Under the pieces are notes generated by a model. The model was not told the DNA's origin. It did not search any database and saw nothing but the letters and a program-made list of their open reading frames with translations. Of a stretch of DNA of 64,000 bases, positions 23,607-28,370 are shown in pieces (position 1 is the first letter of the stretch; the number at the start of each line of letters is the position of its first letter). The stretch lies in sequence record DRR723986_6897. One strand, written 5' to 3'. A program made the translations under genes and the position numbers.

Positions 23607-23816
23607 CTAGTCGAGTGTTTTCAGGTTTGAAGCTGAAGAGCGACCGCGACGGTCAGGCTCGATGTCGTATGATACTTTTTGGTTGTCGTTCAGTGAACGC
23701 AGACCAGCTGCTTCAACAGCTGAGATGTGTACAAAAACGTCGTTGCCGCCTTCATCAGGTTGGATAAAGCCAAAACCTTTGGTGGCGTTAAACCATTTTA
23801 CTGTACCGTTAGCCAT
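23607..23816 (-). CDS. cspA: Cold-shock protein
   Basis: [15 protein letters not shown] (RNP1), DVFVHISA (RNP2); paralogue identity uncertain. Confidence 0.95.
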
Positions 23817-24127
23817 GTTGTAGTTCCTTTCGCGCGATGTCAGATGTGGTGCGGTGGTGTTCGCGCAAAAGCCAGATCAGAGCAGTCGCAGGGTCAAAAT
23901 TATGAACCCAAAATTGGGTCCCTTAACCTGCATAGTTCAGTGCCAACAAAAGTTAGCGAAATTGCAGTAGGGCGACTGTTATCAGCCTTTCTGATCAATT
24001 GGAAAAAAAAACGACACAGATATTTAAGGGATGTATTTTTCTCGAAAAGGGTGTGTTTTCAGGCAACACTTGGTTTTTGGGCGTTTTGCGTTCTGTTATA
24101 AAGAGAATACAGACGTGAAAACTGGAC

Positions 24128-26791
24128 TTAAGAAAACGATGCTAGGCATGAGCGTACTTCGTCAATTTTAACCGGTTTGGTCAAAAACACATCAATACCG
24201 GACTGCTCGCTTTTCTCTTTTGCTTCTTCCATCGCATCAGCCGACAGTGCAATGATAGGAACTTCGCCGCCCTTTTCTCTCAATGCCCTAATTTCAGAAG
24301 CCAACCTGTAGCCATCCATGCGGGGCATACGTAGATCGGTGAGAACTATTTTATGAACGTCCGGATTATACATCTCAAGTGCGATGACACCGTCGTCTGC
24401 GGTGTCCCAAGTATAGCCCAATGATTCCAATATCTTACCAATAACAATTTGGTTAATTTTATTGTCTTCAACCACCAGAATATGCGCGTTTTCACTCTTT
24501 AGATCGGTGGGCTGTTCGCCGGGTGTTTTACTGGTTGCCATCTCAGACAAAACAGGGTCTTCCGCCGCCAAAACAAATGGCACAGTCAGGGAGAAAGTGG
24601 ACCCTTTGCCCACTTTACTGTCAACCGCAATGTTACCGCCCATAAGGTCCGCTAAACGCCGACAAATGGAAAGCCCTAAGCCGGTGCCACCATATTGCCG
24701 CGCGATGGATGAATCTGCTTGTTCAAACGGCTGAAACAGACGGTTCATAATTTTGGAATTGATGCCAATGCCTGTGTCTGTAATGGCAATTCTGACTGTA
24801 CAAGGCTGACCAGCAGGCATTTTTTCACACGTGGCAATCAGCTTAACGGAGCCTTTTTCGGTAAATTTTAGAGCGTTGCTGAGCAGATTATACATAATTT
24901 GTCGAATTCGATTCGAATCGCCGATCACCATCTGGGGCAAGTCATCTGCTAAATCAACCGAAAGCGACACGTTCTTTTGTTTAAACCCTTGCGCCAGCAG
25001 GTTGGTAACACCGGTTAAAACTGACGGCAGGTCAAATTGATGGTTATTAATTTGTAGTTTTCCCGCTTCAATTTTGGATAGGTCGAGGACGTCGTCCAGA
25101 ATTGTTAGCAGTGTACCTGCCGATTGATTGATGATGGTCACCAGCTGGTTTTGCTCATCATCCAGTTTGCTTCTCTCAAGCATTTCACCCACCGAGATAA
25201 TCCCGTTCATGGGAGAGCGAATTTCATGGCTCATCATCGCAAGGAAGTTGGATTTGGCCTGTGCGGCTGCCTCAGCTCGGCGTCGGGCATCTTCCAGCGT
25301 GTGCTCCACCTGCACTTGTTTGGTTGTGTCGACCACGATGATCTGTCGTGCTTGCTGACCATGCCATTCAACAGTATTGCTGGTCATGTTAAACCAGCGC
25401 ACGCCGTCCTTGCTGGTTTCAGTTATGGCGTGGCGCGCCACTGAGAGAACGCCGCCCAGTCCTTGTTCGTCAAAAAGAAGCGAGGGAAACATTGCCAAAA
25501 TGGCTTTGTTTGCTTCTGCTGTGCCGCATTCAGGCCATAACAGGGCAAAGGCGTCATTGTGATATAAAATTTCTGTACCCGCAGCGATGCACATAGCTTG
25601 CGGTGACAGGCGGATAACGGCATTGGTTTGCTCGGCGCTTCGTAGTATTTGCTTTTGCCTGTTATCAATTTCATCAACAAAAGTTTGTACGGCTTTCCCA
25701 ATTTCTGCCACTTCATCGTGACCATCAATTGTTAGTGACTGGCTGCCGCCAGCCGCCCGGCCAATTACAGCATCTCGTAGCGATACAAGGCGGGCCAGAA
25801 CTCGTCGTTCAATGAAGAAAAAACCAATCATGGCAATAACCAACGCAACAGCTACACTAATAACCAAAGCAACAAGTTGCTGCTGGCTTTGTTTCACTAG
25901 GTTTTGGGCAGTGGTTTGGGCCTCGTTACTTTTTTGTGTGGCGAGGCTGTCGGTTTTTCGTAAAAGCTCAGCTACCAGAACCCGCATTTGGCGTTCTAGC
26001 GCACGAGACCGAGCATCAGCTCGGTTCAAATTTCGCAGGGTTTCAACCAAACCAACATTGCCGTTAAGCATAGCCTCTAGATTTCCTAGCCTATCAAGCG
26101 TGAGGCGTTGTTCGCTCTGGGGCAGCGTCGAAACTGCTTGGGTTAATCTGTTTAACGCCTGAGTCATGCTGGGAATTTGCCGCTGCTGGTTGCGTACATC
26201 ACTGCTGGTAGACAGCGCCGTAACTTGTTGAATCAGGCTGCGCTCCAAACTCATCCAGTTTTCAAGTGATTGACTTTGATGCGACACTGTATCTTGCTGG
26301 TCGTGGGTTAGCTCTATAACAACCCAGTCGCCCAACTGGCTGTGTAAAGCTTGAAGTCGATTTGAAAAATCAATTTTATTTTCAATAAGGTTGTTCAGAT
26401 CACTGGTTGTCTCGGACAGAATAGCCAGAACAGTGCGAATTTCTTCCACGTCCAAGAGCGTTTCACGCGACGCCAGGAGGTTGTTGATGCCAGCAATCGA
26501 ATCCTGGGTTGCGGTATGAGCGATCCGCCGTCTGGCCTGAACGTTACTGTTTACCAGTTGCTCAGTGTTTTGGACAATTTTTTCCAGGGAAGAGTTGAGG
26601 TCGATGGAGGCTGCAAGGGCTGGTAGAGTCTGATCCGAATAGTCAATTACCTGATCACGAAATTGCTGTAAAATGAAGAATGACAATGCGGCAACGGTCA
26701 TCATCAACGCAACCAAAGCCACAACCACGGCCTTAATTTTAAAGCCTAGCCCTAGATTGCCTCTCGTTAATTTGGCACTGCCTTTAGTCAT
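24128..26791 (-). CDS. Hybrid sensor histidine kinase (TM-periplasmic helical sensor-TM-HAMP-PAS-like-HisKA-HATPase-REC)
   Basis: FLAMMSHEIRSPMNG, NLLSNALKFT, DTGIG, GGTGLGL, REC VEDN..D..K; start at MTKGSAK overlapping the upstream stop. Confidence 0.93.
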   Translation of the reverse strand: MTKGSAKLTRGNLGLGFKIKAVVVALVALMMTVAALSFFILQQFRDQVIDYSDQTLPALAASIDLNSSLEKIVQNTEQLVNSNVQARRRIAHTATQDSIAGINNLLASRETLLDVEEIRTVLAILSETTSDLNNLIENKIDFSNRLQALHSQLGDWVVIELTHDQQDTVSHQSQSLENWMSLERSLIQQVTALSTSSDVRNQQRQIPSMTQALNRLTQAVSTLPQSEQRLTLDRLGNLEAMLNGNVGLVETLRNLNRADARSRALERQMRVLVAELLRKTDSLATQKSNEAQTTAQNLVKQSQQQLVALVISVAVALVIAMIGFFFIERRVLARLVSLRDAVIGRAAGGSQSLTIDGHDEVAEIGKAVQTFVDEIDNRQKQILRSAEQTNAVIRLSPQAMCIAAGTEILYHNDAFALLWPECGTAEANKAILAMFPSLLFDEQGLGGVLSVARHAITETSKDGVRWFNMTSNTVEWHGQQARQIIVVDTTKQVQVEHTLEDARRRAEAAAQAKSNFLAMMSHEIRSPMNGIISVGEMLERSKLDDEQNQLVTIINQSAGTLLTILDDVLDLSKIEAGKLQINNHQFDLPSVLTGVTNLLAQGFKQKNVSLSVDLADDLPQMVIGDSNRIRQIMYNLLSNALKFTEKGSVKLIATCEKMPAGQPCTVRIAITDTGIGINSKIMNRLFQPFEQADSSIARQYGGTGLGLSICRRLADLMGGNIAVDSKVGKGSTFSLTVPFVLAAEDPVLSEMATSKTPGEQPTDLKSENAHILVVEDNKINQIVIGKILESLGYTWDTADDGVIALEMYNPDVHKIVLTDLRMPRMDGYRLASEIRALREKGGEVPIIALSADAMEEAKEKSEQSGIDVFLTKPVKIDEVRSCLASFS

Positions 26792-28343
26792 CGCCCGCCG
26801 TCCAGTTGAAGGTATTGCTTGCGCTGTTTTGGTTTGCGGCGATATCCTGAATTCGGCCTTCCAACACAGGGGCAACAGTGCCCAATTGCTCAATATGTTC
26901 GACCACGACGGTCCAGATAATTCGGTTTGTGCCGTTGCTGAAAAGCTTTTCGGCTTTGCCAAGGCGTTCAAACCCATCATTGCCGCCCGCCATAAAGTCG
27001 CTGGTAGCCACGTTATATAGCTTTTGTGGCTGCAAGGGGGCGCCGTCAACCATAACGCTAACGATCCGGTTGCCCTTTGTTTCGCGGCTGTCGAGTGTAA
27101 CCTGAAGGTTAGATACATGTGTGTAGCAGCCGTTAACTTGCATGCCGCATTCAATGCCGTGCTCCAGCGTGGCTTGAATATCTGCGCCGCTCAGGCGCAC
27201 CAGTGCGGTTCGTCCACCAAAAGGTAGTTCGCGCTGAATATCGCCGCGGCTGATTTTGTGGCCAACAGCATAGTTCACATTGCCCCGAATTGTGCCGCCG
27301 TTCAGCAAGGCTATGTCAGCGGACACTGCTTGTCTGATGGCGTCGGTGATTAAATTAGCGAAAGCATTTTCTTTGCTGCGGATATTTTGGCGCAGAGTAT
27401 CGAAAGGTATAGAGACTGTTGCTATCGCTGGGCCCAGAAGTTGGTCAAGGCGGGTGCGATAATTCTTGATCGTGGTGGTTACCTCAGAGTCTGGCTGATA
27501 GTCCGACAAGGGCAATAACTCAGCACTACTACGCAGTTTTTGTGTGCCATCTGCGCCGGGTTCCTGCCATAAATCAACTGCGATTATTTTACCGTCCAAT
27601 GCGCCTTCGGTTAGCAAAGTGCCTTGATAGTCCAGTGACTGCGGATTACCGAAATTATGGGTGTAGAATATAATGTCGACTGTGCCGTCAGCCCGCACGG
27701 TGCTTAAATCATCAAAATCCGTGTCAGCCAATAAAACAACGGCGTTTGCGCCTTCCTGACGCAACTGTTTGGCGGCAGCTTTGGTGGCGGTGATGGTCTC
27801 AATTAGTTCCGCTTGTGTAGCGCCGTATTCTGTAATTGCGTTGGCGGAGGTTAAGGCGATAACGCCAATAGAAAGCCCCCCCGCATTGAGCATGTAGGTT
27901 GGGTAGGTAGCATCAATAATGCCGCCAGTTCGGGCATCTTGCAGGTTGCTTGTGACAAGAGGAAAGGATGCGGATAAAGCGTTCAGGATGAAATTATCAT
28001 ACCCATAGGAAAATTCGCGCTTGCCTATTGCCATGACATCGGGGTTAAGCCCATTGATGATATCAATCATATGAGCGCCGTTATCCATGGCCCCAAACAC
28101 TGATGGACCCAACGATGCACCGCCGTGAATGAACAAGATGTTCGGGTTTTTGGCTCTTTCCATGCGTATGGCCGTGGCCAATTCACTAAGCCCTGGCTGG
28201 CTTTCTGGTTGCATGATTTCCGGGAAGGACGAAAAATATAAAATACGTGTTTTAGTGCCGTCGGCGAACGCGCCAGGCGCAACGAGCGAGCTAACTATGA
28301 CCCATAGGACAGATAGCCAACTAAGGCCTATTTTTGCGCGCAT
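26784..28343 (-). CDS. Exported 5'-nucleotidase homologue lacking metal/catalytic residues
   Basis: Signal peptide ending AFA; metallophosphoesterase fold remnants; intact 5_nucleotid_C motifs NGGTIRG, LPFG, SDFMAGGNDGF; GGAG RBS before MRAK. Confidence 0.88.
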   Translation of the reverse strand: MRAKIGLSWLSVLWVIVSSLVAPGAFADGTKTRILYFSSFPEIMQPESQPGLSELATAIRMERAKNPNILFIHGGASLGPSVFGAMDNGAHMIDIINGLNPDVMAIGKREFSYGYDNFILNALSASFPLVTSNLQDARTGGIIDATYPTYMLNAGGLSIGVIALTSANAITEYGATQAELIETITATKAAAKQLRQEGANAVVLLADTDFDDLSTVRADGTVDIIFYTHNFGNPQSLDYQGTLLTEGALDGKIIAVDLWQEPGADGTQKLRSSAELLPLSDYQPDSEVTTTIKNYRTRLDQLLGPAIATVSIPFDTLRQNIRSKENAFANLITDAIRQAVSADIALLNGGTIRGNVNYAVGHKISRGDIQRELPFGGRTALVRLSGADIQATLEHGIECGMQVNGCYTHVSNLQVTLDSRETKGNRIVSVMVDGAPLQPQKLYNVATSDFMAGGNDGFERLGKAEKLFSNGTNRIIWTVVVEHIEQLGTVAPVLEGRIQDIAANQNSASNTFNWTAGDD

Positions 28344-28370
28344 TCTATTCTCCAGTCCCACATTCTGTTT

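Follow-up and report, generated by a model that had tools for sequence, protein, structure and literature searches.

A catalytically degenerate 5'-nucleotidase beside a hybrid histidine kinase: a candidate periplasmic co-sensor pair for nucleotides

Introduction

Why would a bacterium keep, overlapping the start of a histidine kinase gene, a 5'-nucleotidase whose metal-binding motifs have all been replaced? The question arises at positions 24,128 to 28,343 of a 64,000-nucleotide stretch of DNA from sequence record DRR723986_6897 (the whole stretch is called the window below), where the minus strand encodes a putatively exported protein of the 5'-nucleotidase fold followed by a hybrid histidine kinase. 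Most bacterial sensor kinases and cyclic di-GMP (c-di-GMP) enzymes have no known signal, and an earlier note on this locus had proposed that here an enzyme was repurposed as a nucleotide or nucleoside receptor that signals through the kinase. That reading is supported; all of its parts that lent themselves to computational testing were borne out, with two refinements, namely that the partner is the sensor domain and that the likeness to LuxQ holds in principle only. The argument is carried by the loss of the catalytic motifs, the retention of the nucleotide pocket, purifying selection, an obligate linkage to one sensor domain, whose output is a kinase or a cyclase, and the resemblance of that domain's modeled fold to TorS. 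On the strength of sequences and models, we consider it reasonably probable that the two genes form a periplasmic co-sensor pair in which a nucleotide-binding pseudoenzyme would signal through the kinase.

A 5'-nucleotidase fold without its metal site

The N-domain of UshA and CD73 carries the metal ligands and the His-Asp pair of the GNHEFD motif. In the C-domain pocket, as we take it from CD73/UshA, two aromatic residues stack the base, an Asn and an Asp hold the ribose, and two Arg bind phosphate. How much of this is left in the first protein of the window? A Pfam scan returned 5_nucleotid_C only (PF02872, 1.8e-34, 119.6 bits vs a cut-off of 23.6) and did not detect Metallophos (PF00149), and every NCBIfam nucleotidase model scored far under its cut-off. 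A phmmer search of the PDB aligned human CD73 at residues 50-499 (E ~3e-28) and also matched 3ivd. In the CD73 alignment, HGGAS falls on DAGD, GKREFS on GNHEFD, LLAD on LGHS and YTHNF on GGHSN, with H229 as the sole metal-motif His retained; the replacement of motif I, FSSFPE vs NDxH, is seen in the MAFFT multiple alignments and not in the phmmer alignment. The C-domain motifs R322..E325, NGGTIR (N348, R353), LPFG (F375) and FMAGGNDGF (F450, D456) align to their CD73 counterparts RxxE, NGGGIR, LPFG and FLANGGDGF.

The predicted structure agrees with the earlier note's description of a UshA-like two-domain layout. The AlphaFold2 (AF2) model has a predicted local distance difference test (pLDDT) score of 87.9, and Foldseek matched it to whole-length, two-domain 5'-nucleotidases (3ivd, CD73 and UshA; E ~1e-36 to 1e-31), the closed forms more closely (template-modeling (TM) score 0.61-0.67) than the open ones (0.49-0.53). 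By sequence, the first protein, a predicted pseudoenzyme, is confirmed to be a UshA/CD73-fold protein in which the dimetal center of the N-domain has been replaced and the pocket of the C-domain retained, as had been claimed.

Conservation of the degenerate state

A search over 5.8 billion proteins gave 94 matches, and the 61 closest homologues (P0003-P0063, 83-30% identity) have PF02872 as their only domain. Within P0003-P0058, the replacements SS, GGA, K[R/K][E/D] and [A/G/V]D[T/N]D occur in 56/56 proteins and the motif V His in 55 of them; the same substitutions in every one of these clade members mean that the loss of the motifs is more than chance. In a 30-member alignment the six pocket residues do not vary, nor do S38, S39, E42, G74-A76, K108, E110, D207 and D209; H229 is almost invariant across these Kordiimonas-clade proteins. 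A quick maximum-likelihood tree (64 rows) unites the 17 kinase-linked rows in one clade (Shimodaira-Hasegawa-like approximate likelihood-ratio support 99), which groups with six "intermediate" rows (GGDS, xKREF) at a support of 100; the neighbors of that larger clade are alphaproteobacterial proteins that have kept GNHEFD.

Is this a gene on its way out? The ratio of nonsynonymous to synonymous substitution rates (dN/dS, Nei-Gojobori) was computed for the N-domain. Three pairs have unsaturated dS and give 0.066, 0.084 and 0.031; dS is saturated in the remaining pairs. Reading frames are intact at every locus examined. Sequence comparison thus places the degenerate state under strong purifying selection rather than in decay, a dN/dS signal of decay being one of the results that the earlier note had named as a refutation.

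Among the nearest relatives that keep the motifs, a sister clade (L017-L042) has an odd motif I (NDxDR or CDIYE, not NDxHG) and SGDDH as motif V, and may use a modified metal site.

The kinase and its sensor domain

The first gene's stop overlaps the kinase start by 8 nt, as the earlier note had it: the kinase begins with the ATG at 26791 and the upstream stop, TAA at 26786-26784, lies within the same ATGACTAA. By its domains the second protein is a hybrid histidine kinase of the HisKA family, with H522, N635, D672/G674/G676, G701-G706, D819 and K872 invariant in 16 kinase homologues. The architecture described previously stands as to the helical periplasmic domain, HisKA, HATPase and receiver (REC) domains; its HAMP domain is a weak match only, under the cut-off (E 0.0057). 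Pfam found no histidine phosphotransfer (Hpt) domain in the window kinase.

The sensor region, residues 42-305, matches no Pfam family above cut-off (the best is 4HB_MCP_1, E 0.0045) and has no sequence match in the PDB. Its AF2 model (pLDDT 81.6) consists of seven helices and no strand, and six of its seven best PDB structure matches are TorS sensor domains (3o1h, 3o1i, 3o1j, 3i9y and 3i9w; E 1.7e-4 to 6e-3, TM 0.49-0.58), followed in rank by the helical bimodular domains of PilJ and McpS. These matches, though modest, are in keeping with the analogy to TorT-TorS drawn in the earlier note. A complex prediction for the mature protein (28-519) and the kinase sensor (42-305) scored 0.32 vs a mark of 0.34, with controls at 0.00-0.01, and speaks neither for nor against binding.

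Linkage to the kinase in related genomes

How tightly are the two genes held together? A locus scan with one genome per species yielded 42 loci (L001-L042), of which 16, from Kordiimonas species and related metagenome-assembled genomes (MAGs), carry the fully degenerate form and one, L016, the intermediate form. A hybrid kinase lies directly downstream in 17/17 of these, from an 8 nt overlap to a 22 nt gap, and in 16 of the 17 the similarity of this kinase extends over its full length and takes in the periplasmic domain. The junction is a 1-8 nt overlap in 12/17 loci and a 4-22 nt gap in the other five, with starts taken from mechanical calls of open reading frames (ORFs). The nucleotidase-like gene and the kinase are the only genes common to all 17 loci. 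At the sister loci that keep the catalytic motifs or GNHEFD, no kinase was found within 6 kb in 24 of 25, the exception being L034 with a kinase-core ORF 2.4 kb away.

The pairing can also be followed from the sensor domain. An order-level sample of 151 genomes contains the kinase sensor domain in 19 genomes and a close N-domain homologue in 22, and 19/19 sensor matches lie ~1.5 kb downstream of the N-domain match. Two further genomes, G387 and G342, have a downstream hybrid kinase with a diverged sensor, which brings the count of genomes with a kinase downstream to 21/22.

These data bear on the least favored explanation, that a decaying or functionless nucleotidase remnant sits by chance beside an unrelated orphan kinase. 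The neighboring genes of the window are unrelated to the pair and no regulator is linked to it, as such a remnant would have it; against this, dN/dS is 0.03-0.14, frames are intact, the pair persists in 17/17 loci while its flanks change, and the pairing holds in both directions. As far as computation goes, the conservation data refute this explanation, and we regard it as extremely improbable.

At L013 and L014, the kinase-linked loci that branch deepest, the kinase gene is followed by a gene (L013 11119-13404; L014 11483-13468) for an RTX-repeat protein with weak similarity to M10 metallopeptidases, possibly a target or a co-regulated gene.

The wider family: cyclase-linked and fused forms

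Does the kinase linkage extend to all degenerate homologues? A profile search over 1.84 billion representatives was taken to its best 150 matches, of which 134 are 450-700 aa long; among those 134, 91 are without the Asn-His of motif III (44 with Lys-Arg in its place) and 43 have it. The pocket is present in the 91 degenerate representatives (R322 in 88, N348 in 89, R353 in 87, F/Y375 in 82, F/Y450 in 88 and D456 in 85) at the same rate as in the motif-keeping ones (41-43/43). A metagenome scan with one subfamily (FGGxS, xKREFS; 28-36% identical to the window protein) found 80 marine and sediment loci; in the 79 homologues compared, pocket residues are kept in 78-79 and KRE[FL] predominates. 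KRE is the one feature of the active-site region common to the kinase-linked clade and this subfamily.

The idea that all dead homologues neighbor kinases had to be rejected: none of the 80 metagenome loci has a same-strand kinase core within 3.5 kb, and a cyclase stands in its place. A consistent adjacency of motif-less homologues to this kinase type, which the earlier note had proposed to check, is thus upheld in the Kordiimonas group and fails in the metagenome subfamily. At 75 of the 80 loci the next gene encodes a membrane protein of ~530-600 aa, with a start that in most cases overlaps the nucleotidase-like stop (by 4, 8 or 11 nt); four of the five remaining loci have <250 nt of contig left. 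Each of the five downstream proteins scanned for domains has GGDEF (one also with a HAMP match), and GGEEF occurs in 62/62 full-length ones. The periplasmic region of the cyclases is homologous to that of the window kinase (hhalign 99.0%, E 4e-18, 257 columns), and, within L001-L042, a profile of their first 375 residues (sensor, membrane helices and HAMP) picks out all 17 kinases (E 1e-29 to 1e-44) and nothing else among the ORFs.

Of 33 proteins listed with a joint sensor profile, 19 are kinases and 14 have GGDEF, some of the latter named Paraglaciecola. In a set of 401 Pseudomonadota genomes, a nucleotidase-like gene lies directly upstream of each of the three strong sensor matches; eight weak, partial matches have none there. 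In four protein clusters the motif-less domain is fused to SBP_bac_3 repeats, PAS and a SpoIIE/PP2C phosphatase. Most dead homologues in the databases are linked to a cyclase that has the same sensor domain, and therefore the partner is the sensor domain, not the kinase as such. As these profiles and alignments indicate, the conserved unit is a pseudo-nucleotidase plus this helical sensor domain, with interchangeable outputs (phosphorelay, c-di-GMP synthesis and PP2C). A sensory input pair would be expected to look like this, translationally coupled and constant at the input while its outputs vary.

Could the protein still be an enzyme, with a non-canonical center that makes or destroys a molecule sensed by the helical domain of the kinase, or that processes a nucleotide-derived signal? 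E42, D207 and D209 are candidates for such a center in the Kordiimonas clade, together with H229; some apparent pseudoenzymes have migrated catalytic residues, as a review notes (PMC10211241); and the PA2072 CHASE4 sensor both binds and hydrolyzes ATP (PMC12625894). Set against this are the replacement of nearly all metal-ligand positions and of both His-Asp residues of GNHEFD, H229 alone being kept, the failure of Pfam to detect Metallophos, and the cyclase-linked subfamily, in which the candidate acidic residues of motifs IV and V are not conserved; E42, D207, D209 and H229 are not kept there. We therefore rate a surviving enzyme as improbable.

Some further observations concern this wider family. 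One representative comes from a Campylobacteraceae MAG. P0098 (2537 aa) and P0217 (992 aa) have 10 and 4 tandem 5_nucleotid_C domains, respectively, without a metallophosphatase domain, another non-enzymatic use of the nucleotide-binding half. In 22/80 metagenome loci (L052-L116; e.g. L105 8042-8665) the nucleotidase-like/cyclase pair is followed by a DUF3016 gene on the opposite strand, many of these loci having a pepA-holC-valS context upstream. At L113 (8080-10899) a second receptor comes directly after the cyclase, with a phosphonate-binding-protein-like periplasmic domain, PAS, GGDEF and EAL.

A possible mechanism and what weighs on it

What might such a pair do? From the comparisons above we infer a ligand class, an absence of catalysis, a physical contact and a direction of signaling. 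The first protein would bind a nucleotide without hydrolyzing it, a nucleoside or a dinucleotide being less likely. It is on KRE in the place of NHE in both subfamilies, together with the intact C-domain pocket, that we propose a clamp: a phosphate-bearing nucleoside would be held between the two domains, with two basic side chains (Lys-Arg) replacing the lost metal ions, and the domains would close around it as those of the enzyme do. Closure would be read by the TorS-like periplasmic domain of the kinase, to which the protein would be bound in the manner of TorT on TorS. Autophosphorylation of the kinase at H522 would thereby be altered, and phosphate would pass to its own receiver (D819) and then on to a response regulator by way of an Hpt protein, the genes of both lying elsewhere.

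Rather than a nucleotide, the co-sensor might bind some other ligand, or it might be a ligand-free regulator or scaffold of the sensor domain. ExoR and CpxP act on their kinases in that way. The linkage evidence is silent on the ligand, and the N-domain is more conserved than the pocket-bearing C-domain (mean pairwise identity 59% vs 52%), which could mean a protein-protein interface or a new site. The six pocket residues argue the other way, being kept at the rate of motif-keeping enzymes across subfamilies 28-36% identical to the window protein, a conservation that would be difficult to account for if the protein bound no nucleoside-like moiety. We consider this alternative unlikely, while granting it more weight than a surviving enzyme.

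Several points count against a nucleotide-binding co-sensor. Its support consists throughout of sequence comparison and models. The match to TorS is modest (TM ~0.57, E 1.7e-4), and matches come easily to helical bundles. The invariant E42, D207 and D209 and the nearly invariant H229 could form a residual or new metal site in the Kordiimonas clade. Within the window, the pair has no linked gene for a response regulator, an Hpt protein or a target. The kinase-linked form was found in one alphaproteobacterial order only; in a class-level sample, the sensor domain occurs in 1/301 genomes, namely the center genome itself. Finally, one degenerate homologue, L043 (genome G438, contig C208, 351-6226), is more diverged and has neither a kinase nor a cyclase adjoining it; its neighbors encode a SpoU methylase on one side and, on the other, a TonB-dependent receptor that carries an STN (signaling) domain, and its C-domain pocket residues are lost too.

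We also put forward a broader proposal, tentatively and with less confidence than we have in the pair itself. The KRE-type pseudo-5'-nucleotidases and their helical sensor may be a widespread, unrecognized bacterial receptor family for extracellular nucleotides, a counterpart of purinergic sensing. The dead enzyme would clamp a nucleotide that comes from lysed cells, extracellular DNA or dissolved ATP, and would then switch a phosphorelay in Kordiimonas-type Alphaproteobacteria, c-di-GMP synthesis in Paraglaciecola-type marine bacteria or PP2C in the fused forms. If the ligand is a nucleotide, marine bacteria would own dedicated extracellular-nucleotide sensing, and cultured carriers exist in Kordiimonas gwangyangensis DSM 19435 and Paraglaciecola species.

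Features and surroundings of the locus

The coordinates of both genes and their parts are collected in Table 1. The ORF of the first gene extends over 26784-28361(-), and its likely start is the ATG at 28343, with GGAGAA just 5' of it. The putative signal peptide, read from the sequence, has a basic N-end, a hydrophobic core and AFA ahead of the likely cleavage site; residues 22-28 are of low confidence in the AF2 model.

Table 1. Features of the pseudo-5'-nucleotidase/hybrid kinase locus in window coordinates
Feature	Position	Strand	Basis
Exported (predicted) pseudo-5'-nucleotidase gene (519 aa)	26784..28343	-	Translation, Pfam, PDB phmmer, AF2 and Foldseek
Putative signal peptide, residues 1-27 (MRAK...APGAFA, then DG)	28263..28343	-	Sequence reading
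Degenerate metallophosphoesterase-like N-domain, ~residues 30-300	27444..28256	-	YFSSFPE, HGGAS, GKREFS, LLADTD and FYTHNF as replaced motifs
K108-R109-E110, replacing N-H-E of GNHEFD	28014..28022	-	Alignments
5_nucleotid_C domain, residues 309-460; pocket R322, N348, R353, F375, F450, D456	26964..27419	-	Pfam
Overlap ATGACTAA, 8 nt, first gene's stop and kinase start	26784..26791	-	Translational coupling
Hybrid histidine kinase gene (887 aa), without Hpt	24128..26791	-	Translation, Pfam, NCBIfam
First membrane helix (TM1)	26669-26740	-	Limits read from sequence
Periplasmic all-helical sensor domain, residues 42-305	25877..26668	-	AF2 model, PDB structure matches
Second membrane helix (TM2)	25811-25876	-	Limits read from sequence
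Weak HAMP (residues 327-375) and PAS-like stretch (~390-500) ahead of HisKA		-	Domain scan
HisKA, residues 512-577	25061..25258	-	Pfam
HATPase_c, residues 624-739	24575..24922	-	Pfam
Receiver domain (Response_reg), residues 771-881	24149..24481	-	Pfam

The flanking genes encode an epimerase, a pseudouridine synthase, a 3-hydroxyisobutyrate-dehydrogenase-like protein, a lumazine-binding protein and a LysR regulator, with no evident connection to the pair. In the 64-kb window phmmer detected no further ORF with a REC, Hpt, kinase-core or GGDEF region, and no tor genes lie near the pair in the window; stand-alone Hpt-sized ORFs are present in two related genomes, unlinked to the pair. A promoter and terminator scan gave counts at or under the shuffled expectation.

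A small ORF, 23727-24101 (+), of 124 aa and with no Pfam match, is convergent on the end of the kinase gene, and a similar one occurs at the same place in 6/17 related loci; its composition looks unlike that of a real protein, and it may merely mirror conserved DNA.

Comparison with known systems

The first protein shares with UshA, CD73 and NadN the two-domain fold, the C-domain pocket and periplasmic export (here read from the sequence). It differs from them in the replacement of all five metallophosphoesterase motifs, with Lys-Arg for Asn-His, and in its obligate linkage to a signal transducer. By fold, it belongs to the 5'-nucleotidase superfamily; by its sequence, it falls outside that family's catalytic definition. 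Databases name these proteins "bifunctional metallophosphatase/5'-nucleotidase" (Protein Atlas gives generic nucleotidase names only), a name that is probably wrong, judging by the motifs, for at least the 91 degenerate proteins counted in the 450-700 aa set (134 proteins from the best 150 matches).

As a sensory system, the pair resembles known arrangements in principle, and in each case it falls outside the group by its partner fold or its scores. LuxP-LuxQ, the autoinducer-2 system of Vibrio, also joins a periplasmic binder to a hybrid kinase without Hpt, and the kinase cores are similar (NF041947, 339.7 bits, far under the cut-off of 1200). The sensor of LuxQ has a tandem PAS fold, whereas the modeled window sensor is all-helical, and the partner folds differ as well; the analogy to LuxP-LuxQ in the earlier note is thus good in principle and does not extend to the sensor structure. 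NspS-MbaA is an example of a c-di-GMP enzyme controlled by a binding protein, and in the cyclase-linked subfamily (75/80 loci) a periplasmic partner would likewise control a c-di-GMP enzyme in the membrane. In systems of that type, the known partners are solute-binding proteins; here the partner has a 5'-nucleotidase fold.

TorS senses through a bound periplasmic protein, TorT (PMC8050422). The likeness to TorT-TorS (trimethylamine N-oxide sensing, Escherichia coli and Vibrio parahaemolyticus) lies in a soluble periplasmic partner encoded beside a hybrid or unorthodox kinase with a long helical-bundle sensor (here a prediction from the model), and the full HisKA-HATPase-REC-Hpt set of TorS is found in the kinase of the deep-branching L013 (1179 aa); the L014 kinase is similar in length only (1188 aa), the domain scan having covered L013 alone of the two. 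Unlike TorS, the window kinase has no Hpt, and it scores 395.5 vs 676.5 with TIGR02956 and 229.3 vs 982 with NF008543 (equivalog cut-offs). TorT, moreover, is a Peripla_BP_1 protein, whereas the partner in the window has the 5'-nucleotidase fold and 5_nucleotid_C only.

Has a nucleotidase-like co-sensor been described before? The earlier note knew of no description, and we found none in the literature searched, with subscription journals and supplements outside the search. The review PMC8050422 deals with the stimulation of cyclases and phosphodiesterases by binding proteins, and the partner-dependent sensors tabulated there all use solute-binding proteins; in that review and in PMC8534201 the word "nucleotidase" has 0 occurrences. 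A functional parallel is the CHASE4 domain of PA2072 in Pseudomonas aeruginosa, which PMC12625894 describes as a periplasmic receptor for extracellular ATP that controls c-di-GMP; PA2072 differs in being a one-protein receptor of unrelated fold that also hydrolyzes ATP and has no separate partner. Partner-dependent transmembrane sensing itself is already known. What appears new here is the fold of the partner, the family of the sensor domain and a plausible class of ligand: a second, unrelated fold in the putative partner role, that of a 5'-nucleotidase predicted to be catalytically dead, with a ligand class that can be tested and a partner domain that recurs with three outputs.

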